Positions 371 to 22,244 of a DNA stretch of 64,000 nucleotides are shown here, piece after piece. How positions within the stretch are numbered: the first letter of the stretch is position 1; each line of letters begins with the position of its first letter. The stretch covers positions 62,001 through 126,000 of the forward strand of contig JAYWIR010000075.1 in assembly GCA_036172245.1 (NCBI GenBank), read 5' to 3'. Made by a program: the position numbers and the translations under genes. Under the pieces are notes generated by a model. It worked only from the letters and a program-made list of their open reading frames with translations. It did not search any database and was not told the origin of the DNA. This DNA comes from Raillietiella orientalis. Its lineage: Eukaryota.

Positions 371-1058
371 TTGCCACCCGGTCACGCCGGGGCGTTTATT
401 AAAAATTCTCTTTGATTCGTGGTACGAGGCCCCACTACGGCCAACTCAACTGGACCTGCCGGGTCGCCGGTACGCAGACCGGCGCGACTCTCCTCGGCAG
501 CGGAAGGGGGTGGGGGAAAAAACAAAAAGAAAAATAAAACATAAAAACAAAAAGATTTAGGAGGATTGGGGAGGGATCACTGACCACTGGGAGGAGGGTC
601 CATCCTTCGCAGGATGCCCTCGAGGTCCGTCCGTATAATTCCCAAGTGGGGCCATCTGGTCACAATCCGCAGGTAGCGGACTGCAAGTACGACTGCATCC
701 CTGTCGTGGCTCGGTCTTCCGACGTTGCTCCAGCACGTCACAATCCCGCGTACGCAGCAAAGTGCAGCCAGGGTAGCGGCTGGACGCAGGGCATCATGCA
801 CGAACAGAAGCCGAAAAACGTCTCTGGGCTGGCTGCCCTCCTGGATTCGTAGGGAGGCACGAAGACGTTCCCACAGGGGTCGGAGGGCAGCACAATCAAC
901 AAGGAGGTGGGGGAGAGTTTCCCGTTCCCCACACCTGATGCAGGTAGGATCTACTCGACCCCTGGTCCAGTGGTGGCGGCGTGCGTTGCAGGGTAGACCC
1001 CAATGCAACAACAGAAGCGCCGACTCCTGCCACTTCAGGGGGAGGATCCTAGAACCAA

Positions 1059-4000
1059 TTAATACCGGAACCACTTCAGGTCATCCGGCTGGATGCCGAG
1101 TAGCTCGCCCCATCTCTGAAGTCCTCTTGGCTGGACACTGGGGGTACTGGCGTCCGCCAGTTCACCCGTGGCCCAGCCGCTGATCAACTTCTCCTTGCCT
1201 GCGATGCGGCAGGAGACTTGCCACCTAGGCTTGCGGCTGCTGGAGAGCGCCCTCCTCAGGAAGGGCATCGCCGTAGCTAGGGGGGTTGTCTCTGCCCACG
1301 TGCTTCTCGCGGGACACTGGAGTATCTTCCGCAGAGTGCAGCGGGAATAGGCGCCGCGTCGCAGGCAGTTCCACATCTCTCCGTTCTTCTGGTTTATCTT
1401 CGCCCACGTGCCAGCTGTCTCCTGCAGGCATGCGGAGGAGTTGGCGGGGCTGCATACCATCCAGCCGTTTTCCTTAGCCAGAGTTGCCATGCGTCCCAGG
1501 AGAAGTCCGCATCTCTTGATCTTCCTGCCACGGCACAGAAGATAGGACGCGAGACCCTCCGTCCCGGATACACGGCTGGCAAGGAGTCGGGCCGGAACGC
1601 ACCAAGGGGTGCTCCATAACTTCGCTGCGATGGCGAGGGTTCGCCACCGCAGCTGAATCTCTACTCGCTCCATCGTCAAGAGGCCGAGACCGCCATCCCG
1701 ACGTGGAGCACACAAGTCCTTCACCGGGACTCGGGGCCTCCCTCTTCCCCAAAGGGCAATTCTCAGGAGGTCCTTTGTCCGTTTTTTCAACTCTCTGGGG
1801 ACGGGGCAAACAAAAAGCAGGGGGCGGAGGATAGGAGCCGCGAACGCGTTCCATACCGCGGCCCGTTCCGGAAGAAGAAACTTGTCTTCCAGAAACGGGC
1901 CGATCGCCGTTTCCACTTTTTGGAGGCAGCCGGACCACGCTTTTGCAGGGGAGTAGTCCCGCAACGGCACACCAAGGTACTTCAAGCACCTCGCCGAGGG
2001 GATCCCCAAGCGGACCCAGTCCGGCTGCCCAGCCCACGCCGCACCGACTGGAACCACCGTCGACTTCGCCCTGTTCACCGTAAGTCCGGTCCCGCGGCTA
2101 AGCAGATCGAAGAAATCCCCGACCACCTTCGCCGGGGTGGACATCGGCAACAGAAGCAAAAGATCGTCGGCGTACGCTGCTACGGCGGGCGTGCCGGGGC
2201 ACGAGCTCTGCAAGGGGGCGAAAGTCACCCTGTACGCTCTCAGCACCAACTCAAAGTAGGTGCTAAAGAGCAGGGGACTAAGGCTGTCGCCCTGCCGTAT
2301 GCCCCGCCGTACCGGCACGCCGTACGCCATTTGACCTCTGAAAGAGATATTGATCAGAGCGCTGCGCCAGCAAGAGCGCAGGTAGGTCAGTAGGGAGGGA
2401 GGGAAGCCCATGCGTCCCAGGAGCTCCAGCAGGAGATCCTGGTCCACGCAGTCAAACGCTTTATGCAGATCGACTGCGATCGCTAGGGCTCCCTTCCCCA
2501 CCTGGGAGTCCTGTCCCTGCCCGGCTGACGCCCCCAAAGCGGGGCTGCCAATCCTTCCCTCTTCCTTTTCTTCACTACTCTGCACATGAAACCATGTGCT
2601 CGCGAAGAAGTGGTTGGCCTCCATACTTCGCCCGGGAACAGCGTAAGTCTGCTGCGGGCTAATTATGGAATTGGCCACCTTCCCCAGACGCGAAGCCCAC
2701 AGTCCGGCGATCAACTTGGCGTCCGTGTTCACAATTGTGATCGGACGCCAGTTGCTGAGTTTCCTGAGGTCTCCTCCTTTCGGAAGGAGCCTCACTCTGG
2801 CTGACCGAAACGAGGCGGGTACATCGCCTTCATCTCGGATCAGCCTAGTCAACTCAAGCACCAGGGGTGCCAACTCTGCCGCGAAGCATTGAAAAAACTC
2901 CGCAGGCAGGCCGTCCTCCCCTAGTGCTTTCCGCCTCTTGAGCCTTTTGATACCGGCGAGAATTTCGCCGGTGGTAAAAGGCTCGTCGAGGCTTTCCTTC
3001 TCCTCCTCCTTTATTGTCGGGGCACCGTTCGGAAGCAAGCGCCGAGAGGCATCTTGGTCCGGGGGCTCCCTGGCGTAAAGGGAGGAATAATAACGCCGCA
3101 CGAGGTGCCGTATTCTAGCCGGAGCCGAGTGCTCCCGGCCCTGGTCGTCCAGCAAGCTGGGCGATCCGGATTGCCAGGCTTGACGTTCGGCCCCGGCTCG
3201 GTACTCTGCCAGGCGACGGTCGGCGAGTTCGGCCGCGAGCTCTTCCGCCGCCTGCTGGAAGGCGGCCTCGTCGATCGCGGCGAGCGCATCGCGCGGTTCC
3301 CCCTCTGTTTGCACAGAGGGTTCGCCTTCCGTGATCGCGTTATCGTCGGCGTCGACGCGGGGGATATCTCCCCCGGTGGCGGTCTCGGGTACATCCACAC
3401 GCTCCAAAGCGACCGAACATTCGCGGATCAACGCGCGGCGTTGTCTCCTATTTAAAGGAGACGTCGCGGGTTCCGCTGTCGAGTCTTCGGTTTTCTTTGT
3501 TTTCTTGGCTTTAGGCTTCGCCTTCTGCCAGCCTTCGCTCTTTTCAGCGTCGTCGGTAGATTCCACGACCGTCGTTTGCTGCACGGGCTCGGGGTCCGGC
3601 TGTGGGTTCCGCCTCACGGGTGCCTTCGCAGGCTTTTCCGTAGCCCCCGCGCGTTTCCCTTTGGCCTTTTTCAAGGCAGCTGGAGCCGGGGGTTCGCGCT
3701 TCGGGCACACTTTGCGGAGGTGGCCCTTCTCTCCACAGTGGAAACACTGGATGTGGGGGCACCGCTTTTTCAGGTGCCCTGTGGCATCACAGTGTCCACA
3801 GTACTTGGGCTTGCCCACGTACCAGACGTCGACGGTCTCGTTGCCGACGTCTAGTTTGTGGGGTAGCCCACCGTTTTCGTGGACGGTTACACGCGCACCA
3901 GCCATGCCACTAAACAGTCTTCCGTAACTCTGGAAGACGTTGGGCTTGGTCCATAGCGCGTGAACCGTTCCGTATTTTCCGAGTTCCTCCTGCACGTCGG

Positions 4001-4667
4001 CTTTCGACATGCGGAGGGTGACTCCCGTGAGGTGCGTCACCACGGAGCGATCCTCCGTTACCGGGAAAACCTTTCGGCCTTCCAGTGTGATTGGCGTATT
4101 CAGAAGATGTTGAGCAAGGCTTGCATTTCTGCAAGTCACCTCCACCCGTTGACCACCACTCAACACGGAAAGACCTTCCAGGTCTTCCTCTTTTACGTTC
4201 AACCGCTGCAACTCCCTTTCGAAGTTGCGAGCGGTGTTCCCGACAAACAGATTGCCTACCTTGTATATCAGGGACGGCTTGTATCCCTGCTCCAGGTAGG
4301 CTTTCTGCTCGGCGAGGGCTGCAGGAGATGGGGCTGCAGCCACTGAACTCCAGGTCTTCGGCGATGCCGAAGACGCATTCGAGGGTGCAGGTGCTCCCTT
4401 TTTCAAGGAGGCGGTTGCGCCCTTTTCCAGGGTTGCGGTTGTCCCCTTTTTCAAGGGGGCGGTTGCACCCTGTTCCAGCGGGGCTTTTGCCCCCTTTTTC
4501 AAGGGGGCCTTTGCCCTCGCTTCCGAGGCGGCGGTTGCCCCCTTTTTCAGGGGTGCGGCTGCCGTCGCCTCCGTGGGGGCGGTTGCCCCCACCTCCGTGG
4601 GTTGGGGAGAGGAGCAAGCCTCTCCCCCTCCTATATCCATCGCGGTGTCCTCAGGCATTTCTGCCAT
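1059..4667 (-). CDS. Fused ORF1 (gag-like, CCHC knuckles)-reverse transcriptase polyprotein of copy Z
   Basis: ORF 1059..4700 (first ATG at 4667): CGHCDATGHLKKRC and CFHCGEKGHLRKVC knuckles, then directly the RT motifs (DLHKAFD, GIRQGDSLSP, YADD, KYLG). A frameshift near 1070 separates the C-terminal CCHC segment (577..1074). Confidence 0.85.
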   Translation of the reverse strand: MAEMPEDTAMDIGGGEACSSPQPTEVGATAPTEATAAAPLKKGATAASEARAKAPLKKGAKAPLEQGATAPLKKGTTATLEKGATASLKKGAPAPSNASSASPKTWSSVAAAPSPAALAEQKAYLEQGYKPSLIYKVGNLFVGNTARNFERELQRLNVKEEDLEGLSVLSGGQRVEVTCRNASLAQHLLNTPITLEGRKVFPVTEDRSVVTHLTGVTLRMSKADVQEELGKYGTVHALWTKPNVFQSYGRLFSGMAGARVTVHENGGLPHKLDVGNETVDVWYVGKPKYCGHCDATGHLKKRCPHIQCFHCGEKGHLRKVCPKREPPAPAALKKAKGKRAGATEKPAKAPVRRNPQPDPEPVQQTTVVESTDDAEKSEGWQKAKPKAKKTKKTEDSTAEPATSPLNRRQRRALIRECSVALERVDVPETATGGDIPRVDADDNAITEGEPSVQTEGEPRDALAAIDEAAFQQAAEELAAELADRRLAEYRAGAERQAWQSGSPSLLDDQGREHSAPARIRHLVRRYYSSLYAREPPDQDASRRLLPNGAPTIKEEEKESLDEPFTTGEILAGIKRLKRRKALGEDGLPAEFFQCFAAELAPLVLELTRLIRDEGDVPASFRSARVRLLPKGGDLRKLSNWRPITIVNTDAKLIAGLWASRLGKVANSIISPQQTYAVPGRSMEANHFFASTWFHVQSSEEKEEGRIGSPALGASAGQGQDSQVGKGALAIAVDLHKAFDCVDQDLLLELLGRMGFPPSLLTYLRSCWRSALINISFRGQMAYGVPVRRGIRQGDSLSPLLFSTYFELVLRAYRVTFAPLQSSCPGTPAVAAYADDLLLLLPMSTPAKVVGDFFDLLSRGTGLTVNRAKSTVVPVGAAWAGQPDWVRLGIPSARCLKYLGVPLRDYSPAKAWSGCLQKVETAIGPFLEDKFLLPERAAVWNAFAAPILRPLLFVCPVPRELKKRTKDLLRIALWGRGRPRVPVKDLCAPRRDGGLGLLTMERVEIQLRWRTLAIAAKLWSTPWCVPARLLASRVSGTEGLASYLLCRGRKIKRCGLLLGRMATLAKENGWMVCSPANSSACLQETAGTWAKINQKNGEMWNCLRRGAYSRCTLRKILQCPARSTWAETTPLATAMPFLRRALSSSRKPRWQVSCRIAGKEKLISGWATGELADASTPSVQPRGLQRWGELLGIQPDDLKWFRY
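4395..4586 (-). repeat. Coding minisatellite, 8 x 24 bp (ATAPLKKG-like), in ORF1 of copy Z
   Basis: ATAPTEAT AAAPLKKG ATAASEAR AKAPLKKG AKAPLEQG ATAPLKKG TTATLEKG ATASLKKG. Confidence 0.9.
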
Positions 4668-7114
4668 TGGACACCGCAGATGCTTCACACACAAACACAA
4701 AAGAAACCAAACGCTTTACACCAGGCGCGGAGGAGCGCTACAAAAACACTTCCGCACGCCAAGTTGATAGCAGGGCTATGGGCTTCGCGTCTGGGGCAGG
4801 TGGCAGAATCCGTAATTAGCCCGGAGCAGACTTATGCTGTTCCCGGGCGATGTATGGATGCCAACCTCTTCTTCGCAAGCACATGGGTGCACCTGCAGAG
4901 AAGAGAGAAGAAAGGGATAGGGAAAGTCGGAAACCCCACATTGGGGCCGCCAGCCGGGCTGACAAGGGACCATGGGCGGGGAAGGGGGCCTTAGCGCTCG
5001 CAGTCGATCTCCACAAGGCGTTCGACTGTGTAGACCAGGAACTACTCTTGGAGCTCCTGGGTCGCATGGGCTTCCCACCCTCCCTGATTTCCTACCTGCG
5101 CTCTTGCTGGCGGAATGCGATGATCACCGTCTCTTTCAGCGGTCACAAGGTGTATAGCGTGCCGGTGCGGCGGGGCATAAGGCAGGGAGATAGCCTCAGT
5201 CCCCTGCTCTTCAGCACCTACTTTGAGCTGGTGCTGAGAGCGTACAGGGTGACTTTGGCCCCATTGCCGAGTTGGTGCCCCGGCACGCCCGCCGTAGCAG
5301 CGTAAGCCGACGATCTTCTGCTCTTGTTGCCAATGTCCACCTCGGCAAAGGCGGTCGGAGACTTCTTCGATCTGCTCAGCCGCGGGACCGGACTGCAGGT
5401 TAACATGGGGAAGTCATCGGTTGTGCCAATAGGTGCGGCGTGGGCAGGGCAGCAGGACTGGGTCCGTCTGGGGATCCCACGGCGAGGTGCTTCAAGTACC
5501 TTGGTGTGCCGTTGGGGGACTACTCCCCTGCGGAAGCGTGGTCCAGCTGCCTCCAAAAAGTCGAGACGGCGATCGGCCCGTTCCTGGAAGGCAAGTTTCA
5601 CTTGCCGGAACGGGCCGCGGTTTGGAACGCCTTCGCGGCCCCCATCGTCCGCCCCTTGCTTTTTGTTTGCCCCCCCACCGTGGAATCCAAGAAGAGGACG
5701 GAGGACCCCTTCCGTATCGCCCTTTGGGGCAAGGGGAGGCCCCGAGTCCCACTGAAGGACTTGTGCGCTCCGCGTCGGAACGGCGGTCTTGGCCTCCTGA
5801 CGCTGGAGCGCGTGGAGAAGCAGCTGCGGTGGCGAACCCTCGCCATCGCAGCGAAGATGTGGAGCACCCCTTGGTGCACTCCGGCCCGCCTCCTGGCCAG
5901 CCGTGTGTCCCGGTGCGATGGACTCGCGTCTTTTCTTCTGAGCCGTGGCCGGAAGATGCGAAGATGCGGCCTACTACTCGGGCGCATGGCAACATTGGCC
6001 AAGGAGAACAGCTGGATGGTTTGCTGCCCCGCCAACTCCCCCGCCTGGCTGGAGGAGAATATTGGATCGTGGGCAGTGGTTAACCAGAGAAGCCACGAGA
6101 CGTGGAATCGTCTCCGATGCAGCCCCTACGCCCGCTGCACGCTGCGGAATCTCCTGGAGAGTCCAGCAAGATGCACGTGGGCAGAGACGACCTGCCGAGC
6201 TACGGCGCTGCCCTTCCTGAGGAGGGCACTTCACAGCAGCCGGACGCCAAGGTGGCAAGTCTCCTGCTGCATCGAAGGACGCGAGAAGTTGATCAGCGGC
6301 TGGACAACAGGAGAACTGGCCGACGCCACGACCCCGAGCGTCCAGCCGCGAGGATTATGAAGATGGGGCGAGCTGCTCGCCATCCCTACGGATGTGCTGA
6401 AGTGGCCCCCGGTATTAAAGGAATCCAGGATCCTGCCCCTTAAGTGGCAAGAGTCGGCGTTGCTTTTGTTGCACTGGGGTCTACCCTGCAACGCGCGCCG
6501 CTTCCACTGGACGAGGGGAGCTGTGGATCCTGCGTGTGCCAAGTGCGGGGAGCGGGAGTCTCTCCCCCACCTTATTGTGGATTGTGCTGCCCTTCGACCC
6601 CTTTGGGAACGGTTCGGGACGACCCTCGGGCTCCCTACGGGCAGCACCCCCAGAGACGTACTTCGGCCCCTCTTCGTGAAGGACGCACTGCAGCCAGCCG
6701 CAGCCATCGCAGCCTTGTGCTGCGTCCGTGGCATCGTGGCGGCATGGAGCGACGCCAATAACGAAGGAGTGGGTCCACACGCGAGGGATGTCATCCCATA
6801 CGCCCAACGCTTCATGCGGAGAGCTGCCGGATGGCCCCAACTGGGGAATATGCAGACTGACCTCGAGGGCTTCGTTCGACGGATGGGCCCTCCCCACAGC
6901 GACCAGTGATCCCTTCCCCGTCCTCCAACTTCTTTTTGTTTGTTTCTTTTTATTTTTCTTTTTGTCTTATCCCCATCCCCCTTCGCTGTCGGGGAGTGCC
7001 ACGCCGAGCTGCGTCCCGGTGTCCCGACAGGTCGCGTGTTTACGGCCGTGGTGGGGCCTCGTACCACGCATGTAGAGTTTTCAAATAAACGCCCCGGGCG
7101 TACCCGGGTGACAA

Positions 7115-9847
7115 CGCCGAATCCCCGAGGCAGACGTTGCACAGGGAACTGTTCGCAGAACTCCCGGACCGAGTCCTTAAATAGGTCCCAATCCGCGAGA
7201 CTCTGGAGGGTGACGCCTCGCAGGAATTTGCAAAGATGTTCTTTCGCTCCTGACAGGCGCGTCCAGTCCCCTGGCATACGCCAATCCCTGGATGGCGGTC
7301 CCTTGTCGCGCGGGCGCATCTCGAATAATAACCGGGAATGTTCCGACAGCGTCGATCCAAGTGTCCCTCGTTTTCCGACCCGTGTGCACAGGTCTTCGTC
7401 GAGGAAGACGTGGTCCACGCTGCTGACCATCCCGCTTATTTCTGTCAACAAGTTGCGCGCGCTCATGGCGGCGCACAACTCGTTGATCGCGTTCCCCTGT
7501 GCTGCGGGCTGATCTGAGAGCAGACGGACGTTGAAATTCCCTGCTATCAGATGCGCCTTTCGCACGTCCGCGTCCACCAGCCATTCGCGCTTCAAGGTTT
7601 CCAGTAACCCGTTGCGCTGCTGGTATCCCTGTTTACCGCTAGGAGCGTACACATTGGTGACGATGAGGTCGATCGAATCGGACCATCTGAGAATCAGTTG
7701 GCCGATCCGTCCGTCGTCCCCAAAGCGCACGCCCTTCACGGCCGCGTTAATGGCTGGCTTTGGGAAGAACGCGACCCCACAAGTGTTGCGGGCGCCGCAT
7801 CGTCAGTACAACCGCCCTCCCTCGATTGTTTCGATCTGCTGGGCGTCTTTTGCGGTGATCACGTGGATCTCTTGCAAAAGCACCAGGTCGAAATCTCGCA
7901 AGGTGGCGGCTGTATCTCGTCTGTTTCCGTCGTCGCGCAGCCCGTTAACATTCCAACTGGCCGCGCGGATCCGACGGCGACAGGCGAGTCCAGATGTTAT
8001 TCCTGGGAACCTGGCGGGGGTGCTCCCGCCACCTTTTGGGGCGGGTCGCTGGACGGGGTTGGCGTCTTGCCCACCAACTCCCCATCCTTCTGTCGTGCCG
8101 ACGTCTCCGGCTGCCCGTGCGAAGGGGGTGTTGTTCGTACCTGTTGGCCCACATCCATTGGTGCGGGTGGTTCAGGTTCGGCGGTTTCAGAGAGCATTGC
8201 TGACCCCTGGTTACCCTCCTCCATTGGAGTCGCCTCCTCGTCGGCTTCCGCACGTGGGTGATGCCCGACTTGGGCTCCCACGCTGCCATCCACTGGTTCT
8301 TCCACCATTGCATCCCCCTCGCGCGGAGGCGGAATGCACCTTCGGGGTTTCTGGGATTTTCGCCCCGCTTTCCTTGGTGGTGCTTCCGCAGAGGAGGATG
8401 CACTTCCGGCCTCCCGGTCCGACTCACCTGCGGGGGCCACTTTAGCCGCTGCCGGCCTACGCAACCCCTTTCGCGAAGGGTTCTCGCGTTCGGCAAGCGT
8501 TGCCGCAAGCTCCTCGGCGGCCTTCTCGAAGGCTGCGTCCTTGGTTTCGGCGATTTGGTCGTCCGGCTGACCCTCTTCGCAAGCAGGGGGTGGGTTTTCG
8601 CGCGCATTCGTCGCGGCGGGAAAATCGATCGAAGCCGTATCGCCTCCGGTGGTGTCGGCGGGAACGTCAATGCGCTCCAGCGTAACCGTGCATTCTCGGA
8701 GAGTTTTTACGCGCGACACGGATTTAACTTTTGTTCCGTCCGCCGCCTTCTCTCCTTTCTTCGGGACATGCTTGTCCTTTTTCTCTTTTTTGGCTTTGAC
8801 TAGCTGCCAGCCCTGTTCTCCCTCTGCGGTTTTGGTAAGATTTTTCTCAGATGCCGCGCTTGGAGCTTGGGTTATTGGAAGCTTTTCTCGGCCAGTTTCA
8901 CGGTTTTCCAATTTTTCTTTCCCCGCGCGTTTCCCTTGCGCCTTTTTGGCGGCCGAGGAAATTGGGGTGGGGCGTTTAGGGCACACGCGACGGACGTGTC
9001 CCTTCTCCCCGCACAAGTAGCATACGATGTTTGGACACCTCTTTCGGATGTGTCCGACCGCATCGCAGTAGCCGCAATACCGTGGCTTGCCCGCATACCA
9101 GAGGTCTACCGGTTCTCCCGCGACCTCAAGTTTGTGGGGTAGCTTCGCTTCATCTTTTGGGGTTACGCGTGCCGCGGCGAGGCCCCCGAAGTGGCGTCCG
9201 TAGCCCTCAAAGATTGTGGGCTTCGGCTACAGCGCGTGTACGTCCCCGTACTTACTTAATTCTGCTTTTACGGCAGTGCGCGTCATGCGCTTGGATATTC
9301 CTGTCAAGTAGACCACTACCGAGTGGTCCATTGACACCGGGAAGATCTTACGGCCGTCCATGATCAGCGGGGTATTTATAAGGCGATCGGCTAGGCTGAT
9401 GCTCTTGCACACCAGCTCAACCCGCTGCGCCCCGCTGAGCACGCACAGACCTTCCAGATATTCCTCACGGACATTAGCATTTTGAAGCGCTCTGCTGAAA
9501 GAGCGCGCCGTGTTCCCTTCAAACAAAGGGCCTACCTTGTATACAAGCGATGGCTTGTATTCAGAGGCCCGATAGGCGGCTTCCTCGGCCATGGCCTCCG
9601 CACTGGGGGCGGCGACCATTTCACTCCAAGTCTTCGCCGGCTGCGAAGACGTTCCAGGGACTATTGCCCCCATAGCTGTAGGTCTTGTGGTAGGACTTGC
9701 CTTCTCTACAACTACATCCATCGCAGTGTCCTCTGGCACGGCTGCCATCGGACACCGTCGACCCACACTTTACACCTGACTACACTGAAAACTCCGGCTG
9801 CTTCCCAGACAAGCGCTGGCGGAGCGACCAAAAAACACGTACACCCA
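7115..9847 (-). mobile_element. Tx1/L1 copy B: 5' end, ORF1 (with stops) and APE endonuclease, broken at the GFG site by copy A
   Basis: ORF1 from ATG ~9748 to TAA 7997 with CCHC knuckles. EN motifs SWNVNGL, LQEIH, NVYAP, AGNFN, VDHVF and SEH. Confidence 0.92.
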
Positions 9848-12838
9848 CACCGGCTTTAGGCGAAGGCGTGAGGAACGACAGAAACTATCTCCAGGCCCGT
9901 CGTTTCTCCAACAAGCCCGACGTCCGTCGCCTGGCGGAAATCAAGGCTGGAGCGGAGAGGCAGGCCTGGCAATCCGGGTCTGCCTGCTTGCTGGACGAAG
10001 AAGGCCAGGAGCACTCATCTCCAGCGCAGGTTTGCCGCATTCTGCGGGATTTCTATTCCTCCCTTTACGCGCTGAGACCACCAGAGCGCTCCTCTGCCCA
10101 GCGCCTGCTGCCAGAGGGTGCTCCCGCGTTGAGGGAGGAAGAAATAAACATCTTCCTCCAAGAGTTCACGATGGCGGAGATAATCTCCGCCATTACTGAA
10201 TTGAGAAAAAACAAAGCACCAGGGGAAGACGGCCTGCCAGCTGAATTCTACCAACACTTCGCGGCAGAGCTGGCCCCCCTGGTGCTAAACCTATGTATGC
10301 TGATCCGTGAACGTGGGGATGTCCCCAACTCGTTCCGGTCAGCTAGAGTACGTCTCCTTCCGAAGGGAGGAGACTTGCGCAACGTTGGCAACTGGCGTCC
10401 CATCACTGTAGTGAATGCGGACGCAAAGTTGCTCGCCAAACTGTGGGCTGAGCGCCTGGGACGGGTTGCGGACTCCGTGGTCAGTCCGGAACAGACATAC
10501 GCTGTTCCCGGACGAACCATGGAGGCCAACCTGTTCCTCGCCAGCACATTCTGGCAGTTGCAACAACGCGAGGCGCAGCTACGTCGGGAAAGTCCTGGAC
10601 TCTCCATTGACAAGGGGGAGGAAAGCCGGGAAGAAGATGAGGCGCCTGGAGCCCTTGCGGTCGCAGTCGATTTGCGTAAAGCTTTCGACTGCGTCGACCA
10701 GGAGCTCCTTCTAAAGCTCCTAGAACGCTTAGGATTTCCGGCCGTCTTTCTGGCCTACCTGCGCTCCTGCTGGCGCTTCGCGCTCATCAATATCAATTTC
10801 AGCGGCCGGCACGTGTTCGGCGTGCCGGTTCGTCGTGGCATCCGGCAGGGTGACAGCCTCAGCCCCCTGCTCTTCAGCATCTACTTTGAGTTGGTGCTGA
10901 GAGCATACAGTGAGACTTTGGCAACCCTGCCGAGCTCGTGTCCCGGCACGCCTGCCGTGTCGGCCTATGCCGACGATCTTCTGCTCCTGCTTCCCGGGTC
11001 CACCCTGGCATCGGCGCTCGAGGATTTCTTCGAGTTGCTATACCGTGGGACAGGCCTCCAGGTGAACAGGACGAAGTCGTCGTTGCTTCTCACCGACTCG
11101 ACGAGGGCCGGACGGTCGGACTGGATCCGCTTAAGGATCCCCACGGGCAGATAAATCAAGTACCTTGGCGTTCCGTTGGAAGACTTCTGCTCTGCAGAAG
11201 CCTGGTCCGACCGTCTACAAAAAGTGGAGCTGGCGATCGGCCCGTTCCGGGACGGCAAGTTTCACTTCAAGGAACGGGCCACGGTATGGAACGCTTTCGC
11301 GGCCCCTCTCCTTCGCCCCCTACTTTTTGTGTGCCCTACCCCTTACCAAATTAGGACACGGACCAGGGGCCTCATACGGAAAGCCCTCTGGGGCAACCGG
11401 AGGCCCCGCGTCCGGCTCAAAGACTTGTACGCTCCACGCAGGGACGGTGGACTTGGTCTCCTGACGTTGGAGCGCATGGAGCGACAGCTCCAATTCAGAA
11501 AACTTGCCCTTGTGGCAAAGTTTTGGACAGCACCCTGGTGTGCACCCGCAAGACTCCTTGCTCACAGGGCAACCGGCTGCTTTGGATTGACTTCAATCCT
11601 GGTAGCCAACTAACGCAGCCTGAACCATTGTGGTTATCAGCTGCGGGACTTGGTTGCCCTGATGAGAGACAACCCTTGGATCTCCTGCATCCCAGCGGAC
11701 TGGACTACCTGGCTTCAGGAGTCCGTTTCCGCATGGGCGAAGATCAATGGCACCAGTGATGAGGACTTCTCCTGCCTCCGCAGAGGGAGGCACGCTGGTC
11801 AGCCACTCCAGGAGATCGTTTCCAACCCACGGAAACTTCTGTGGGCTTCCTTCACCCCCCTTGCTCCAGTGCTGCCCTCCCTCAGGGAAGTTCGGGACAG
11901 CCACCAACAGGCATCGTGGGAAGTGTCTTGCCTCATCGGAGGCAGGAAAAAATCACTGAAGGCGTGGACGCCGAGGGAACTAGCAAACGCTAGTACCCCG
12001 AGTGTCCCGCCGAACGGACGTTCACGCTGGGGCGCGCTGCTCGGTATACCTCCGGAGGAGGTGAAGTGGCCCCCAGCGTCATGGGACAACGGCACCCTTC
12101 CCCTGCAGTGGCAGGAGACGGCGTTGCTTCTGCTCCACTGGGTACTTTTAAGCAGAGCACGCATGTCTCGCTGGACATCGGGGAATGTGGATGCTATTGT
12201 GCAGAGTGCGGGGAAAGGGAGACCTTCCCCCACTTGATTCTGGAGTGTGTTGCCCTCCGCGAAATGTGGGACAGACTCTCGTCGATCCTCAACATTCCGG
12301 AGGGTGACCCGAAAAATTTATTCAGACGCCTTCTGACGCGAGACGGCTTGCCAGCCTCCGGGAGCGTAGCAGTGCTCTGCTGCATACGCGGTATCCTGGA
12401 GAAGTGGACCGCGTCTAGGAGAGGAAGGACCAGCCGGAATGCCATCCACTGGGCAGCGATCTCCTTGGAGAAAGCGTGCCGTTGGCGCCGACTTCAAAAA
12501 CATTTGCCGGCACTTGTTCGCATCCGAAACCGGATGCAAAGGCCTGCTCACGGCGCACCGTGATCCCCTCCCTCCCTCTCCCTCCCCAGAAACATTGCCC
12601 TCCAGACGTTTTTCTTTTTTTGTTTTTGTTTTCTTTTATTTTTCCCGTCCCGGCGCCAGTGAAGGACCTTATCGGCCTCCGGGTCGGTAAGGACAAGTGC
12701 CACTGAACGTTTATGAACTTCTAGACATCCTGAACAGCAAATGAGATTTTAGGTGAAAAAATTCAGACTTTGTTATGGAATTTTTTGTAATCTCAAAAAA
12801 TTTTAATAATAAAAGCCCCGGCTTACCAGGGTGAAAAA
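9848..12838 (+). mobile_element. Tx1/L1 copy C: post-EN linker, RT, C-terminus and 3' end
   Basis: ORF 9697..11154 contains KAPGEDGL, DLRKAFD, GIRQGDSLSP and YADD. Later stops and frameshifts. AATAAA at 12808 plus terminal motif. Confidence 0.93.
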
Positions 12839-14451
12839 CCTGAGCTGGGCTGGAGCGTTCTTGGCCCTGATGGTCCAGCAAGCAGGCCGAGCCTGACTGC
12901 CAGGCCTGCCTCTCCGCCTAAGCTTTGAATTCTGCCAAGCGACGGACGTCGGGACGCCTGGAATACCGACGGGCCTGAAGGTAGGCCCGCTCGTTCCTGA
13001 CCCCATCGCCGAAGCCCGGCGGAAGACGCTCCAGGGGAAACTGGTCGCAAAACTCGCGTACTGAGCACTTCATTTCGTCCCAGTCCGCGAGCGTCTCAAG
13101 ATGGAATCCTCCCAGGAAGGCGCGTAGATGTTCCGCCGCTCCTGCGAGGTGCAACCAGTCCCCTGGCAGGCGCCACGTTTTCAAGGGAGGGCCCTTATTC
13201 CGCGGATGCAACTCGAGAACGAGCCGTGAATGGTCGGACAGCTCTGCCGGGAGCGTTCCTCGAGTTCCCATCCGCGTGCACAGGTGGTTGCCGAGGAACA
13301 TGTGATCGATGTTCCGATCTCTCCCGGCATCACCGGCCAACAAGTTGCGCGCATTCATTGCTGCGCACAACTCGTTGACCAGTTCTGCTCGACTGCTGGG
13401 CGCACCTGCCAGCAGACAGTGGTTGAAATCGCCCGCAATAAGGTGCGCCCGCCGTACGCATGCTTCAGCCAGCCAGTCTCGCCGCAGGGATTCGAAGAAC
13501 GCAGTGCGTTCCTCGGCCCTGTGGCTAGACACCAGAGCGTACAGGTTCGTGACTATGAGGTCGATCGAGTCGGACCACTTCAACGCAAGCTGCTCAACTC
13601 GACCTTCCCCGTCGAACCTCACGCTGCGCAATGCGTTGTCGACGGTTGGCTTAAGCATAAAGGCCACTCCGCAGGAGCGGTCGTTTCCGTTCCTCCACAG
13701 TAGCCGCCCTCCCGCGATTCTTTCGATTTCCTGGACTTCTGCTTTGAGAACGTGCGTCTCTTGCAGGAGCACCAGGTCGAAGTCTCGCAGTATGGCGGCT
13801 ACGTCTCGCCTCTTACCGTCGTCGCGGAACCTGTTGACGTTCCAACAGGTGATGAGCAAGCGGCGGCAGGAGGCGAGCCCACGCGTTGGTGTGTTTATTG
13901 TGGGGTGGAGGCGTCCTCCTCCCTTGCGGGAGGCGCCTCGTTGGCGGCCGTAACGACGGTCGGCTGCTCACACGGGAGCACGTCGTCCACAGCGACTTCC
14001 ATGGGGCTGGCTTCCGAGACGCGGATCGGAGAGGGGTCTCGTGGCGCGACGCACATTGCCTCCTCCTCCGTGCCCGAGGACTTGGCCTCCTCCACCTGCG
14101 GAGGGGCGACCCGTCTCGGGCAACCGGTCTTCTTGCCAGCCTTCCTCTTCGGCACGACAGCGGAAGTAGAACAACCGGCTTCGGTTTCGGACTCGGAATT
14201 TTCCGGGCCCTTCACCGTTGCCGGTCGTCTCAAGGCCTTCTTCTCGGCCTTGGCAGGCTGCCGTAACATGGCTGCCAGCTCTTCCGCGGCCTGCGCGAAG
14301 GTCGCGTCCGTTATACGCGCCGCTTCCTCGCTTTCCGCACCGACGAGCGGCGCAGGCGCAGTGGAAGCGGCTTCATCGATCGGCGCGCAGACGTCCTTCG
14401 CTGGCAATGCCGGAACGGCATTGTCGTCAGCTGATGGTGACGTCACTGCGG
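12839..14451 (-). mobile_element. Tx1/L1 copy D: ORF1 C-terminus and APE endonuclease
   Basis: ORF 12918..13859: WNVN, LLQETH, SCGVAF, NLYA, AGDFN, IDHMF and SDH. Upstream segment AAEELAAML matches ORF1 of copies B and Z. Confidence 0.92.
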
Positions 14452-16250
14452 TTTTCACCCGGATATGCCGGGGCGTTTATTTCGAAAAATAAAAATACAT
14501 TAATTTTTCCAGTGGAGAACCCGAAGGCGCACCACGCCAAAACAGCTTGCTGGTTGCCGGCGCTATGCCGGAGAGGTCCTTCCGATGCGCGGGGGTTGGG
14601 ACAGAAAAAACAAAACAAACAAAAAGTTTAAACACGGGAGGGGATAAATGTTTTAGGGATGGGAGGGCAGGGAAGGGATCACTATGCGCCCGGAGAGGTC
14701 CTCTAGATCCTATTCAGGATCTGGACAAGCTGTGTCCTCTGTGCGCCTAAGTGGCGCCACTTGCATACAGCTCGCACGAATAGGCGAGTCCACCGTAAGG
14801 CGTTGCCAGTTGGCTGACGTCTTCTTCTGGTGGCGTTCCAAGCCGCCACGATCCCTCGAATGCAGCAGAGGATTGCTACAGAAGCGGGTGGGGACAAGGC
14901 GTCACTACAGAAGAGGCGCCTGAAAACGTCCTTGGGGCCGCATCCGCGCAAGTCCAGGATCGCCGTAAGGCGATCCCATAAAGGGCGGATGGCACTGCAC
15001 TCAATTAGAAGGTGGGGGAAGGTCTCTTTTTCCCCGCACCGGTCGCACTGGGGATCCACAGCCCCCCGGGTGGTGTGGTACAGGCGTGCTTTACAGGGTA
15101 AACCCCAATGCATTACAAGCAACGCCACCTCCTGCCATTTGAGGGGGAGGGATCCACTGTTCCAGGACGCTGGGGGCCACTTCATCTCCTCCGGAGATAT
15201 TCCGAGTAGCTCGCCCCAGCGTCGAATTCCGTTGGGCGGGACACTCGGCGTCGCAGCGTCAGCTAGCTGCCGAGATGTCCACGCCTTTATCGATTGTGTC
15301 CTGCCGCCTATGGTGCAGGACACGGTCCATTTCCCCTGCTCGCTACTGTCCCTGGCATTCACAAGGAAGGGCAGCACTGGGGCGAGGGGGGTTATCAAGG
15401 CCCACAGAAGCTTGTCGTGGGACTGCACGATCTCCTGCAGCGCCCAGCGGGCATGCCTTTTCAGGCAAGTGTTCTTTGTGCCCGCCGGTACGTAGATCTT
15501 TTCCCAGGTGGAGACTGACTCGTGCAACCATGCCGAGTAGTTCCCTGGGAGGCAGGAGATCCAGGCGTTCTCCCGTACCACAACGTCCATGCGACGCAGG
15601 AGAAAGCCGCCGTGTGCTTCTCTGCGGTCGCGCGCCAGCAGAAACGACAAAAGTCCGCCGAATCCGCAGGCTCGTTGGGCCAGGAGGCGTGCTGGAACGC
15701 ACCAAGGCGTGTCCCACAATTCGGCCGCGAGGGCGAGAGTCCTGAATCCTAGTTGGAGTTCCATGCGCTCCAGCGTAAGTACGCCAAGTCCACCGTCCTT
15801 ACGTGGAGCGCACAAGTCTTTGAGCCTCACACGGGACCTCCCTTTGCCCCAAAGGACTGTCCTCAGGAAGCCCGCTGCTCGTTTCCGGATAAAATAAGGG
15901 GCGCGGCAAACAAAAAGTACACATCCCGGTACGCAGCACTGACCCCTTAGGCCAGAGGGGGATTGTAGCCGCTAGCGGCGTACGCCCGCAGCTCTGCCTC
16001 GTCGGGTGGGGCTCCGTGGGCCGCCGCTGCCTTAGCAACGGCGGCAAAACTTCTCGCTGGAGGCGAGAGACGACCGGTGGAGGCTTCCACTCCTCCCGAA
16101 GAAGGTCCTACGACGCAGCGGCATTCCTCCACCTCCATTTCTGCGGGCACTGGCTTCATTTTCAAATGAAAAATCACACAACACCCAAAAGGAACAGCCG
16201 CAAAAAACACCAAAGACGGAGCGCAATCATGCACGTCCGAATAATAGGGA
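14452..16250 (-). mobile_element. Tx1/L1 copy E: ~1.8-kb internally deleted copy (5'UTR + ORF1 start joined to ORF2 C-terminus + 3' end)
   Basis: ORF1-like SFAAVA..AYAASGYNPPL (15947-16160) abuts LFVC / DLCAPRKDGGLG...CDRCGEKETFPHLLIEC (14703-15830). Terminal motif at 14452-14481. Confidence 0.85.
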
Positions 16251-16269
16251 GGGCGACTATGGTATAGGT

Positions 16270-18710
16270 GTGGGAGACCAAAGAGTTGCGGTGTCGCCTA
16301 CCTGCTTCGGCCAGCCGTCGAGGCCGCGGCTCGGGGCGTGCGGTTCGACGATCACGGTCGTGTCGGCCAGCTGACTCTCAGGTGGTCCGATTCGATCGAT
16401 CATCTCGTCACGAACGTGTACGCACCGAGCGGCGCGCACCTGATGAACAGGAGGGCGAGGAAAGAGTTTTTCCTTGATATCCAACGCGACTAGCTGACCG
16501 AAGCAGGCGTGCGAAATGCCCATCTGGTTGCAGGCGATTTCCACGTTCGCCTGAAGCCAGATGGGCAGAATCACGAGCGTGACCTGATCAACCAGGTGTG
16601 CATGGCGGTGCACACCTGTAATTTCTTGGCCAGTGCACCGGGGATGGAAGAAAGCATCGACCACGAGTTTCTTGGCGAGCACCTATGCCCTCGCGTGAGC
16701 AGGCGCTGCAAGTTACCGTGCGAGATGTCCGACCATCGCCCGAAAGTTCTCTAGATCCATCCGCGCGACAGGGGCCCCCCCTCGTCAGCGTGGCGTCTCC
16801 CAGGGACTGGCTGAACGTCCAGGACGCGGTGGAATATCTCCGCACGTTCATACGGAGCTTAAGGAGGCGGACACTCCAGGATTGGGACCGCTTCAAGCGG
16901 TCGGTTTAGGAGTTCTGCGACCGGTTCCCTCTGCACCGCCTAGCTACGGGTTTTGGGACCGGGGTCCGTAACAAAGGAGCCTATTTACAGGCCCGTCGTT
17001 ACGCCAGGACCCCCGATATCCGCAGGCTGGCGGAATACAACGCGGAAGCCGAGAGGCAAGCCTGGAAGTCCGGATCGGCAAGCTTACTGGACGATCAGGG
17101 CCAGGAGCACTCGGCACCTGCCCAAATCCGCGGCCTGCTGCGGAGTTACTACTCCTCCCTGTATGCCAGGGCACCTCCGGAGAGGAACGTCTCACGACTC
17201 CTGCTTCCGGAAGGCGCTCCAGCGATCGGGGAGGAGCAGAGAAAGACCCTCGACGAGCCTTTCACGATGGACGAGATCCTCTCGGCCATCGGAAAGCTGA
17301 AGAGGCCAAAGGCTCCAGGGAAGGACGGCCTGCCCGCGGAGTTTTATCAAACTTTCGCGGCTGAGCTTCCCCCCCTGGTACAGCAACTCACCTTGCTGAT
17401 ACGCGAAACAGGTGACGTTCCCGCCTCGTTTCGTTCGGCAACGGTGCGGCTCCTCCCTAAGGGAGGAGATCTGAGGAGCATGAACAACTGGCGTCCCATC
17501 ACAATAGTGAATGCGGACGCCAAGTTGCTAGCAAAGGTTTGGGCAGAGCATCTTGCACGGGTTGCCAACATCTTCATCAGCCCGGAACAGACATATGCTT
17601 TTCCCGGGCGAAGCATGGAGGCGAACCTGTTCCACGCTTCCACCTGGCTAGAGCTCCAACATGAAAGGAGCTTGGTGCGCAGCCGGAATTCCGGTGCGTG
17701 CGCTGGCAAGGGTTCGGATGGTCGGGTGGGGGAGGGAGCCCTTGCGGTCGCTGTCGACTTGCGGAAAGCATTCGATTGCGTCGACCAGAATCTCCTTCTG
17801 GAGCTTCTGTTACGCTTGGGCTTCCCGGCCTCATTAGTGGCCTATCTGCGCTCCTGCTGGCGCGACGCGCTCATCAACGTTTCCTTCAGCGGGCAGACCG
17901 TGCACGGCGTGCCGGTGCGGCGTGGGATCCGGCAGGGAGACAGCCTGAGCCCCTTGCTCTTCAGTACCTACTTTCAGTTGGTACTGAGAGCGTACAGGGG
18001 AACTCTGGCGCACCTGCTGCACGACTGTGCCGGTACGCCGGCCGTTTCAGCGTACGCGGACGACCTTCTGCTGCTGCTCTCTATGTCCACCCCGGCTGCG
18101 GCGCTCAAGGAGTTCTTCGACCTGCTGCATCGGGGAACCGCACTTACGGTGAACAGGGCGAAGTCGTCCGTGATGCCAGTCGGTGCGGCGTGGGCAAGGC
18201 AGCAGGACTGGGTCCGTTTGGGGATCCCCACGGTGAGGTACTTTAAGTACCTTGGTGTGCCGTTGGGGTTTTTCTCCCCTGCGGAAGCGTGGTCCGGCTG
18301 CCTCTAGAAAGTAGAGACGGCGATCGTCCCGTTCCGAGGAGGCAGGTTTTTCCTGCCTGTACGGGCCGAGGTTTGGAACACGTTCGCGGCTCCTCTCCTC
18401 CGTCCCCTGCTTTTTGTTTGCCCCCCACAGAGAGGATAAAAAAGCGTACAAAGCACCTCCTTAGTATCGCCCTTTGGGGCAACGGGAGAGTCGGAGTCTT
18501 CTTAAAGGACTTGCGCGCTCCTTGTCGGGACGGTGATCTCAGCCTCCTGACGCTGGAGTTCGTGAAAATCCGGCTGCGATGGCGAACCCTCATTATCGCA
18601 GCGAAGATGTGGAGCACCGCTTGGTGCATTCCGGCCCGCCTCCTGGCCAGGCGTGTGTCCCGATGCGAAGGACTTGCGACGTTTCTTCTGTGCCCTGGCC
18701 GGAAGAGTCA
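16270..18710 (+). mobile_element. Tx1/L1 copy F: partial EN + RT
   Basis: SCGVAY, NVYAP, AGDFH and SDH; ORF 17267..18307 has the RT motifs including YADD. Confidence 0.9.
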
Positions 18711-21250
18711 CCGCCGCTTCCGTCCGCTCTTGCTCCGGAGAGAAATAGCGGTGGCACGCCCGGGAAGTTCACCGGAGCGTCCAAAAAGGGGTCGGGCGCC
18801 TTTTTGCACGAAAAACGCAAGCCGGCCACGGCGAGCTGATCAGCGGCAAAGGCTAAAAAATTTTTCGCGACCTCAAAGAACCACGCCACTCTGCCCGCAA
18901 CTTCCGGTAAGGAGGTGCAGAAGGCAGCAGTTACGACGGACAAACTGGCCGCCATCGCCGCATCGGAGGCCTTGGAGAGGATGCGGAGGACCCTGGAAGC
19001 CCTCGCGCCGAACCAAGGCAAACCCAAAGGCGACGAGGTTGACTGGACCTTCGTTGGGGAAGAAAGAAGGAGCGGAAACCGCGCGATCCTTCCCACTTAC
19101 CCATACTAAAGGTAGGCGGGTTCAAGAGGCAGCCCCGCGCGAAAGAAGGCGCAAGAAAAAGGCTCCGCTGCCGCCGCGCGCGCCGTCGCAAACACCCACG
19201 GCGAGAGGGTAGCTGCCGATGCCGTAATCCCGAAAGGGGGATCGGCGCCGAAAGCACCCTTCAAGAATGCTGGACATGCTGCGAGCTGCCAGCAGAAGAA
19301 GCGGCAGGCGTAGCGCCCTCCGCGCGCACGGAATTCGTACTCCGAGCTACAGTCCGAAGGCAGCGCAAAGGCTCGCCAAGCCCCGGTCAAGGCCAGGGCT
19401 CCGCGCAAGCCAAAACTTGCCAGGAAAGAGGCTGATGCCGGGAACGGTTCTCGATGCTCCTCGGAGCCCGAGGCAATGGTCCTCGACACCACCCAGCCAG
19501 CCGCGAGAGGCGCGGCGGTGACAGGGAGCTCTTGCGCTCCCCCATCAGCCGTGCTCCCGGCTGATGCCTCGCCGGACGGGGCGAGGAACGCACCTCCATG
19601 TCCATAGCAGCAATGAGCGGACTCGCATATTCTTGTCGCGTCTGAGTGGTTCGTTGGTACGTCAACGGGCTGAAGGACAACGAGAAGAGGCGATTGGTTG
19701 CCAACGTCTTGCGCGACTCCGATCTGGTCCAGCTACAGGAGATCCACGCACTCTCCGAACAGCAAGCGGCCGATCTGGCAGTTCGCGCAGGCGGAACGCT
19801 CCGTTGGAGGGCAGGCTCCCAGAATATCTGAGGAGTGGCATTCCTTGTCCGGGGCAGGGTGGCGAGGGCGGTGCGGAGCGTTTGTTTCGACAAGGAAGGT
19901 CGTGTGGGCCAGCTTGTTCTCAAGTGGTCCGAATCGATCTACTTTGTCTTCACGAACCCTCGCCATCGCAGCGAAGATGTGGAACACCCCTTGGTGCGTT
20001 CCGGCCTGCCTTCTCACCAGCCGTGTGTCCCGGTGCGAAGGACTCGCGTCTTTTCTTCCGTGCTCCGGCAGGAAGATCCGAAGATGCGGCCTACTGCTAG
20101 GGCGCATGGCAACCCTGACAAAGGACAACAGCTGGATGGTTTGTAGCCCCACCAACTCCTCCGCCTGGCTGAATTAGACAGCTGGCACTTGGGCCAAGTT
20201 AAGCTAGAGGAGTGAAGATTCCAGGAATTGCCTGCAATTCGGTCCTTGCGCCCGCCGCACCCTGCGGGAAATACTAGAATTTCCCGCGAGTAGCTCCTGG
20301 GAGGAGACGACCCCCCTTGCTACGGCGATGCCCTACCTCCGGAGGGCGCTTAACGGCAGCCAGAAGCCGAGGTGGCAAGTCTCCTGCAGAATCGCAGGCA
20401 GGGAGAAGATGTTAAGCGGCTGGACAATAGGTGAACTGGCGGATGCCACGACCCCGAGCGTCCAGCCGAGAGGACTTTTGCGATGGGACGAGCTGCTCGC
20501 CATCCCCATGGATGTGCTCAAGTGGCTCCCGGTGTTGCTGGAATCGAGCATCCTGTCCCTTAAGTGGCAAGAATAGGCGCTGCTACTGTTGCATTGGGGT
20601 TTACCCTGCAACGCACGCCACTTCCACTGGACAAGGGGAGCGGTGGATCCTCAGTGTTCCAGGTGCGGAGAGCAAGAATCGCTCTCCCACCTACTTGTTG
20701 ACTGTGCTGCCATCCGACCCCTCTGGGAACGGTTTGGGACGACCCTCGGTCTCCCGGTGGGCAGCCAACCAAGAGAAGTTCTCCGTCTACTCTTCGTGCG
20801 GGACGCCCTTCAGCCAGCTGTAGCCGTGGCAACACTCTGCTGCATCCGAGGCATCGTGGCGGCCTGGAGCGATACCTGCGACGAAGAAGTGCATTTATAC
20901 GCGATGGCTGTCATCTTGTATGCTGTTCGCTTCCTGCGGTGAGCTAGTGGATGGCCCTGTTTGAGAAGTTTGAAAAAGGACCTCGAGGGTATCCCGCTAA
21001 GGATGGACTCTCCTCCCAGTGGACTGCGATCCCTTTCCTTTCCTCCAAAAACTCTTTTTTGTTTACTTGTTTATTTTTCTTTTTGTTTTTGACCCCAACC
21101 CATTCCACTGCTGAGGAGAGTCACGCTGGTCTGCGTACCAGCGTCCCGGCAGGTCTTGCGACATATTGGCCATTAGTGGGGCCTTGTACCACGTACTGCA
21201 TTGACAAATGAAACGTTTTTAATAAACGTCCCGGAGTACCCGGGTGGCAT
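18711..21250 (+). mobile_element. Tx1/L1 copy G: probable ORF1 C-terminus, EN N-terminus, large internal deletion, ORF2 C-terminus and 3' end
   Basis: WYVNGL..LQEIH..GVAFLV..KWSESIYFVFTN joins directly to TLAIAAKMW at ~19955. AATAAA at 21221 plus terminal motif. Left boundary approximate. Confidence 0.8.
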
Positions 21251-22244
21251 CGCCCGCTGCACGAGGCGGAATCTCCTGAAGAGTCCCGCCAGAAGCAAGT
21301 GGGCAGAGACGACCTGGCTTGCTACGGCGCTGCCCTTCCTAAGAAGGGCACTTCACAGCTGCCGGACGCCAAGGTGGCAAGTCTCCTGCTGCATCGTGGG
21401 ACGGGAGAAGATGATGAGCGGCTGGACCATCGGTCAACTGGCGGATGCCACGGCCCCGAGCGTCCAGCCGCGGGGAATACTGAGATGGGGCAAGCTGCTC
21501 GCCATCCCCAGGGATGAGCTGAAGTGGTCCTCAGTGATGAAGAAAGAATCGAGGATCCTACCCCTCAAGTGGCAAGAGTCGGCGTTGCTCCTGTTGCACT
21601 GAAGTCTACACTGCAACGCACGCCGCTTCCACTGGACAAGGGGAGCTGTGGATCTTGCGTGTGCCAGGTGCGGGGAGCTGGAGTCGCTTTCCCACCTTAT
21701 TGTGGATTGTGCTGCCCTCCGACCCCTCTGGGAACGGTTCGGGACGACGCTCGGGCTCCCTACGGGCAGCGCCTCAGAGACGTTCTCCGGCTCCTCTTCG
21801 TGCGGGACGCTCTGCAGCCAGCAGCAGCCCTCGCAGCCCTGTGCTGCGTCCGAGGCATCGTGGCGGCTCCAAGTGAGGCCCACGACGAAAGACATGGCTA
21901 CTACGAGAGGGACGTCATCCCACATGCTCTTCGTTTTCTGGGTAGAGCTACCGTATACCCCCAACTGGGAGAAATGCTGACGAACCTCAAGGACATCCTG
22001 CGAAGAATGGGGCCTCCTCCAAGTGGACCGTGATCCCTTTCCCTCCCTCCAAACCTTTTTTTTTTTTATTTTTTATTTCGCTTTTTGTTTTCTCCCCCAT
22101 CGCCTTCCACTGCCGAGAAGATTCACGCCGGACTGCATCCCGGCGTCCCTGCAGGTCCGGTGTTGTGTGGTCGTGAGTGGTGCCTTTTACCACGTTTTTT
22201 GTAGAGTTTTTCAATAAACGCACCGGGCACATCCGGGTTGGAAA
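21251..22244 (+). mobile_element. Tx1/L1 3' fragment H (possibly the continuation of copy F)
   Basis: Homologous to 6130-7114. AATAAA at 22213 plus terminal motif. Confidence 0.88.

Follow-up and report, generated by a model that had tools for sequence, protein, structure and literature searches.

Has a mobile element that retains an open reading frame (ORF) joining its RNA-binding protein to its reverse transcriptase (RT), but that has lost the domain responsible for cutting the target DNA, given rise to a new kind of element, or is it a damaged copy of an ordinary one? This question is raised by a locus in the genome of Raillietiella orientalis, which is contained in a stretch of 64,000 nucleotides (positions 62,001 to 126,000 of the forward strand of contig JAYWIR010000075.1, assembly GCA_036172245.1), to which we refer as the window and whose coordinates are used throughout. 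A first-pass annotation had interpreted the sequence at 371-4755 as an endonuclease-less, semi-autonomous single-ORF element that is mobilized by an endonuclease acting in trans. Our analysis defines this sequence as a copy of 4385 bp of an L1-clade long interspersed nuclear element (LINE) on the minus strand, which constitutes a single insertion with both ends complete and its interior deleted, and it is thus a deleted derivative of an L1-clade member carrying an APE-type endonuclease. We consider it probable that the deletion was a one-off event, which took place either after insertion or during reverse transcription, and we tentatively prefer the first of these options, namely an accident at a single locus that followed insertion and that does not define a new kind of element. 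In any case, an in-frame deletion by chance, which the annotation itself had named as the alternative, is at least as likely as the existence of a semi-autonomous lineage.

Insertion, termini and target site

An older related LINE copy on the plus strand (1-370 and 4771-7114) carries the element in its RT gene, in antisense orientation, and acts as its host; this copy shares 79.9% identity with the insert over 2372 bases. The insert is bracketed by the perfect target-site duplication (TSD) of 15 bp that had been annotated, whose left copy, ACGCCAAGTTGATAG, can be read directly at 356-370 within the host RT codons N-A-D-A-K-L-I and whose right copy at 4756-4770 is identical in 15 of 15 positions. 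Upon removal of the insert and one of the repeats, the host RT reads through in frame (N-A-D-A-K-L-I-A-G-L-W). The limits are fixed independently by a contig from X1, the only public sequencing run found (share 0.13; no RNA run was found), in which 355 is followed directly by 4756, so that 4400 bases are absent and 13 letters can be assigned to either side of the join. This contig is a paralogous empty site and, together with the TSD, it illustrates that no target was lost upon insertion.

Both termini of the family are present in 371-4755, as had been claimed, since the 3' terminus is shared with other copies and the 5' end aligns with that of another 5'-complete copy in the window (copy X) near 9853. 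The 5' terminus (GCGGAAGTGTTTTTG...) and the 5' untranslated region (UTR), which is homologous to the same end of copy X, occupy 4668-4755 (minus strand). The 3' UTR (371-579, minus strand) contains a T-rich tract, which appears as an A-rich region at about 510-556 of the plus strand, followed by AATAAA, a CCCGG...CCGGG hairpin and a GGCAA end, and the latter three features are found again where two other copies end, at 7114 and 21249, and in a shifted form near 22226. A conserved 3' terminus composed of AATAAA, a hairpin with variable loops and (G/A)CAA, with no poly(A), is found at 371-400, 7085-7114, 21220-21249 and 22200-22239. The hairpin is defined by these four copies and, since its stem is invariant, it comes without covariation; this terminus may serve as a recognition signal for the RT.

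The 15/15 TSD, the empty-site contig and the 3' terminus common to relatives are hallmarks of target-primed reverse transcription (TPRT). In light of the intact termini, the perfect TSD and the exact empty site, we conclude that an endonuclease produced the nick, and a full-length parent would supply such an enzyme in cis with no further assumptions.

The internal deletion and the fused reading frame

At 3220/3219 (minus strand), ORF1 passes in frame into the linker that follows the APE domain in ORF2, at the place (about 3220) where such a join had been proposed. The junction is contained in codon 499 (GA/C), to which an ORF1 codon contributes two bases and a linker codon its third base. On the ORF1 side of the junction, the match between ORF1 of copy X and the fused protein (P0001) extends to AAEELAA, beyond which copy X has an acidic proline-rich tail of another 170 residues or so, whereas P0001 proceeds to DRRLAEY, which belongs to the post-APE linker. 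On the ORF2 side, three copies detected with P0001 as query (a, b and c) begin to match exactly at residue 500, with the APE directly upstream of this point in b and c and with copy a starting about 25 codons upstream of it, at a break of the nest of LINE copies. The closest parent-type sequence for the reading of the breakpoint is provided by loose ends of X1 at 3219, where two contigs track the RT side with at least 90% identity as far as 3219, beyond which they diverge into a sequence with the hand translation ARRYERTPNV, which is homologous to ARRYSRRPDV ahead of RRLAEF in copy b. This divergence into APE-linker sequence indicates that the RT part has full-length relatives with an APE at an identity of at least 90%, and it assigns the breakpoint to the position between 3220 and 3219, where a codon is interrupted on either side. 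In the parental sequence the breakpoint is preceded by the four bases ATGT, and the CCGA microhomology that had been annotated at the junction is thus not supported. A spliced origin, as in SpIRE-like elements with GT...AG bounds, was rejected, since the parent-type 3' boundary in X1 (...CTAATGT) lacks an AG; at the same boundary copies a and b read ...GACGT, and the 5' boundary of copy X reads GA/ACGC.

The comparison with four APE-bearing relatives in the window puts the missing stretch at about 1.3-1.4 kb. It amounts to about 1.31 kb in the coordinates of copy b (14260 to 12948) and to about 1.43 kb in those of copy X, and it takes in the tail and stop of ORF1, the region where ORF1 and ORF2 overlap, the entire APE and some 90 residues of the linker. 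The motifs AQEI, GDFN and GFG, which are part of the APE and linker in the translation of copy b, fall into the deleted interval. In a Pfam scan of the 121 ORFs of at least 110 residues in the first 27 kb, Exo_endo_phos was assigned to two (12921-13967, E 2.5e-14, and 7806-8171, under the cut-off) and no such domain was found in P0001. Similarly, tblastn with the APE ORF of copy b identified five places (8036-7116, 9850-9948, 16248-17044, 19619-19978 and 22621-22246) and no match within 371-4755, which bears out the proposed loss of the entire APE.

The fused ORF extends on the minus strand from 4715 to 1062 and comprises 1218 open codons, or 1202 if counted from its first ATG at 4667, and it ends at a stop at 1059-1061. 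With the LINE-type palm motif YADD at residues 848-851, it conforms to the earlier description of about 1200 open codons with YADD intact. The retained ORF1 part (3220-4667, minus strand; residues 17-498 plus two bases of codon 499) contains A/K/G-rich repeats at its N-terminus, two predicted RRM-like modules, two putative CCHC knuckles, a basic region and, at its C-terminus, a conserved helix that ends with AAEELAAELA. In a predicted structure of residues 115-345 (pLDDT, the predicted local distance difference test, of 66), the two RRM-like modules are recognized with middling scores (best Z 8.6, root-mean-square deviation, rmsd, 3.4, 78 residues aligned; for the tandem RRM12 of IMP3, Z 7.8 with 133 aligned), with the CCHC knuckles located downstream. 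The latter (3705-3800, minus strand; residues 306-319 and 324-337) are readable in the sequence, their Pfam match to zf-CCHC (residues 323-339, E 0.0021) is under Pfam's own cut-off, and the region of residues 305-339 matches AIR2 in the PDB.

The retained ORF2 part (1062-3219, minus strand) is in frame with ORF1 and contains the last part of the linker behind the APE (from RRLAEY), the fingers, palm and thumb of the RT and the start of the C-terminal region, with the RT domain (Pfam RVT_1, residues 645-917, E 2.9e-22) at 1965-2783 and YADD at 2163-2174, both on the minus strand. The frameshift annotated at about 1070 was recovered as a one-base gap between 1071 and 1070 (minus strand) relative to all three aligned relatives (the host copy, c20 and c15). 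As a consequence of this gap the fused frame stops at 1059-1061 and no longer includes the C-terminal zinc domain: the last 167 codons are open in the shifted frame at 580-1080 (minus strand) and contain a putative zf-RVT zinc motif (CIRCGERETLPHLLVDC) at 871-1044 (Pfam E 3.7e-4, under the cut-off).

There are no stops in 4107 coding bases, where about 3.7% of single substitutions would make one, and the 95% upper bound for the change since the frames were last maintained is about 78 substitutions (1.9%). By this count the copy is young, and at an age of at most 1.9% an open frame would need no selection. Since ORF1 and ORF2 of the family are encoded in different frames, an arbitrary deletion between them would be in frame with a chance of 1 in 3.

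The predicted structural consequences of the fusion are illustrated in a model of residues 440-1218 (built from 80 sequences, pLDDT 78). In this model, a single continuous helix (model residues 44-77, pLDDT about 73-81) extends across the junction, which is located at residues 59/60. The RT part matches residues 391-739 of human L1 (hL1) ORF2p with an E of 5e-40, and the superposition of the model on 8c8j (Z 36.4, rmsd 2.9, 503 residues aligned) relates model residues 78-635 to hL1 389-952, with residues 78-82 corresponding to hL1 389-393; in full-length human L1 chains the match already starts at model residue 30, which is equivalent to hL1 340-347. The junction would accordingly correspond to about hL1 residue 371 in the modelled fold, and a breakpoint at this position implies that the protein lacks the equivalents of the endonuclease domain (1-239) and of almost the whole Cryptic region (240-380). 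A Z-RT-CTD fragment of human L1 (CTD, C-terminal domain) without the Cryptic region is described as defective in cDNA synthesis in cells and as rescued by Cryptic in trans (PMC13103738). Its domain content is the same as that past our junction, and the breakpoint at about hL1 371 is near the Cryptic/Z boundary at 380; the described protein is an engineered fragment assayed in cells, whereas the present predicted protein carries an ORF1 core fused upstream. The large loss of the Cryptic equivalent argues against a self-sufficient RT, which by this analogy appears unlikely, and the zinc domain, being out of frame, is also absent from the fused RT of this copy.

A different aspect of the fusion concerns the normal arrangement of both ORFs. 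In the two relatives with a visible boundary (X and b), ORF2 overlaps ORF1 by about 24 to 58 codons, with no ATG in the overlap. On the minus strand of X (7997-8171) and b (13895-13967), ORF2 is found in the -1 frame relative to ORF1. As read from these sequences, the overlap suggests frameshifting or reinitiation, and a slippery heptamer is not obvious by eye in the overlap of either X or b. An ORF1-ORF2 fusion protein may be the normal product of the family, in which case the fusion of ORF1 to the RT would be less unnatural.

Origin of the deleted copy

The junction is observed once in the window, where a search with its 24-mer that allowed up to three mismatches gave a single match (with none expected by chance), and no second copy of the subfamily is present there: the 64 kb contain one insertion of it, and no other copy is more than 80% identical to the element (best other match 79.9%). 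The same 24-mer had no match in metagenome contigs and none in genome contigs, neither of which is expected to hold this eukaryote. A search of metagenome contigs for loci related to residues 300-700 gave 597 pattern matches, none of which was confirmed, and a search for homologues of residues 380-640 retained none of 8000 scored candidates at an E of 0.001. In a protein search of a representative library, 35134 matches were obtained at E of 0.001 or lower; among the 150 of these that are listed, none of the 21 Pfam-scanned proteins has ORF1 modules directly before an RT that lacks an APE, and one (P0027) combines ORF1 modules, APE and RT in one protein. A candidate that aligned across the junction in one stretch (P0004) was rejected as an ordinary ORF1 with its long tail. 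In X1, cover is almost nil over 3241-4680 and no contig spans 3219/3220, which reflects absence of cover and is not evidence.

In the scenario that we tentatively favour, a full-length member of the family of about 5.7-5.8 kb, with an ORF1 containing RRM-like modules and CCHC knuckles and an ORF2 containing APE, linker, RT and zinc domain, would have inserted antisense into the RT gene of the older copy by ordinary TPRT and thereby created the 15-bp duplication. An end-joining type of break-and-rejoin event, which involved little microhomology or none, would later have removed about 1.3-1.4 kb, with one breakpoint in the conserved helix that closes the ORF1 core and the other in the final helix of the linker behind the APE. 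This loss would have restored the reading frame by chance, at 1 in 3, and the fused ORF would be open merely through its youth and would not encode a working semi-autonomous protein. The insertion, its TSD, the deletion with its limits and the reading frame are demonstrated, whereas the timing of the loss after insertion and its mechanism are inferred by us. The scenario is favoured by the classical type of the insertion, by the full-length relatives indicated by X1, by the single occurrence of the junction in the window, with no second copy of the subfamily, by the youth of the copy, and by the lack of most of the Cryptic equivalent and of an in-frame zinc domain. Several points weigh against this proposal. 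Copies as young as this one, which carries only one other indel, rarely suffer a large deletion, and the prior for an in-frame outcome is only 1 in 3. The smooth passage of the ORF1 helix into the linker helix in the model is tidy for an accident. Moreover, no full-length allele or orthologue was seen at this TSD, and the uniqueness of the junction is that within a single window of 64 kb.

The requirement for a second rare event would be removed if the deletion had instead occurred during insertion, a possibility that we regard as rather less than even in its chances. Here, the ribonucleoprotein of a full-length parent, with its own endonuclease acting in cis, would nick the target and begin reverse transcription, and the RT, having reached the linker, would jump to where the ORF1 core ends, either within its own template or on a sister RNA, thus skipping about 1.3 kb, so that the copy would be born deleted and never have propagated. 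Such a jump would account for a large deletion in a very young copy with the TSD and both termini as in normal TPRT, and it needs little or no microhomology, in agreement with the parent-type ATGT before the breakpoint. Template jumps of LINE RTs in vivo are documented for R2 and noted for L1 (PMC3414825). On the other hand, the event has left no direct trace, such as filler or a second template, its in-frame result is again a matter of 1 in 3, and with the present data it is not distinguishable from the deletion after insertion.

An origin that would give the element wider significance, and that we judge to be unlikely, is that the deletion predates the insertion and that an APE-less ORF1-RT element was inserted at a nick made in trans by the endonuclease of full-length relatives. 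Its cDNA could have been made by its own fused RT, which would render it semi-autonomous, or by a helper protein, as in non-autonomous elements such as R2 SIDEs, RIME and HAL1. In support of such a propagating lineage, the element has kept both termini and a conserved 3' hairpin, a likely recognition signal, and its TSD testifies to an endonuclease nick although it encodes no such enzyme. The reading frame is preserved across its join, for which the model predicts an uninterrupted helix, its 1218 codons are open with YADD intact, and the -1 overlap without ATG in two of two relatives is compatible with a fusion as normal product. Yet a second copy of the junction was not seen (one match in the window), the Cryptic-equivalent region is almost wholly lost, and a frameshift precedes the zinc domain in this copy; the in-frame status by itself raises the likelihood by a factor of 3 at most. 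The scenario also needs the use in trans of an endonuclease, and probably of more, whereas a preference for action in cis is usual among L1-type elements. Precedents for the spread of internally deleted LINEs in trans do exist, however, and count in favour of a lineage (PMC3414825). In its boldest form, a living APE-less single-ORF lineage, with RNA-binding protein and RT in one polypeptide, as the family may normally produce by -1 frameshifting, would parasitise only the nicking step, which we find quite improbable, and the same doubt attaches to the notion that an own endonuclease would be dispensable in such a lineage as full-length relatives keep nicking LINE nests.

It is very improbable that the composite is an artefact of assembly, where the ORF1 of one copy would have been falsely joined to the linker of another in a repeat-dense region. 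The first 26 kb of the window are a dense nest of related LINE copies and no independent reads cross the junction, but at the join there is no homology between the two sides by which an assembler could have been misled, a matching TSD and both family termini enclose the composite, and the window contains no other copy with more than 80% identity. As for an insertion of an APE-less element by its own RT at a pre-existing lesion, endonuclease-deficient human L1 can insert at DNA lesions. Although a preprint (PMC12871754) describes an alternative nuclease activity associated with the RT fold, the marks of endonuclease-independent LINE insertion as given in part in PMC1920257, namely no TSD, atypical or truncated ends and a deletion of the target, were all absent at 371-4755, where the 15-bp TSD is clean, the 3' end is intact and none of the target has been lost, which makes this the least credible of the explanations.

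Relation to known elements and to the LINE nest

The likeness of the element to L1-clade LINEs, such as human L1 (ORF2p structures 8C8J, 8SXT and 8UW3) and the L1-like elements of plants and charophytes, is reflected in an RT with YADD, an L1-like fold and a putative zf-RVT motif, and the APE of its relatives in the window matches L1 endonuclease structures with an E of about 1e-4. The plant and Chara L1-like proteins are named distant homologues with identities of 28% or less. In contrast to these elements, the present copy lacks an APE N-terminal to the RT and most of the Cryptic-equivalent linker, and its 3' end carries a hairpin and CAA in place of a poly(A) tail. The ORF1 of mammalian L1 is of the coiled-coil/RRM/CTD type, whereas the ORF1 described here is apparently of the RRM-like plus CCHC type. 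It appears best to file the copy as a member of a LINE family with an ordinary structural defect.

Among known deleted elements, internally deleted LINE derivatives are provided by the trypanosome pairs RIME/ingi and NARTc/L1Tc and by HAL1. The copy also shares with the SIDEs of R2 and R1 the internal deletion of a full-length LINE in which both ends, and with them the signals for mobilization in trans, are kept (PMC3414825). However, elements of the SIDE, RIME and HAL1 types are families of many copies with independent insertions and with little or no remaining coding capacity, whereas here one copy is known, in which 1218 codons including the RT are open. It resembles the precursors of such non-autonomous elements. 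If the deleted form were found to spread, it would offer a natural experiment on which functions of ORF2p are required in cis, such as the RT, and which can be borrowed, such as the endonuclease and a Cryptic-like linker, and it would illustrate in what way such parasites could be sustained by LINE nests. At present, the locus provides a single internally deleted copy that is dated and cleanly bounded and that points to the -1 overlap of ORF1 and ORF2 in its family.

The antisense location in a conserved coding motif of another LINE is reminiscent of Tx1-group and other target-specific LINEs; in contrast to these, a single insertion of the subfamily was seen, and an X1 contig carries the same 3' end beside a different flank. 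The element's own RT gene contains 14 of the 15 bases of the target site (2709-2729, minus strand; codons N-T-D-A-K-L-I), so that the subfamily could land in its own copies, and the homologous site of the RT is uninterrupted in the four other copies in the window that span it.

The element is the innermost part of the nest, in which 371-4755 lies within the host, the host within X and X within copy a. Copy X (minus strand) ends at residue 320 of the APE ORF against the 3' end of the host (7115/7116), and copy a (plus strand) begins at residue 317 against the 5' end of X (9850-9853), and both copies are thus broken at the same G-F-G codons. Elsewhere in the nest, APE residues 30-153 (19619-19978) abut RT residues 1025-1216 (19953-20528) on the same strand, which reflects either another internal deletion or a junction of the nest on the sense strand. 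In copy X, the stretch aligned to the element contains no array like the tandem repeats of 24/48/96 nt at 4378-4601 (minus strand), which in the element encode the APLKKGATA-like, A/K/G-rich units at the N-terminus of ORF1. The G+C content of the nest (1-26000) is about 59-61% compared to 34-45% at 28000-50000, and the elements are thus compositionally foreign to their surroundings. Finally, the X1 contig with the different flank has its loose end at 375, and in the frame of the host sense strand this flank could encode Q-A-E-I-E-I-Y, which recalls the AQEI motif of the APE, with its last bases sharing a TTGA(A/T)A motif with the target of the element, two weak resemblances that are both taken from this one contig.

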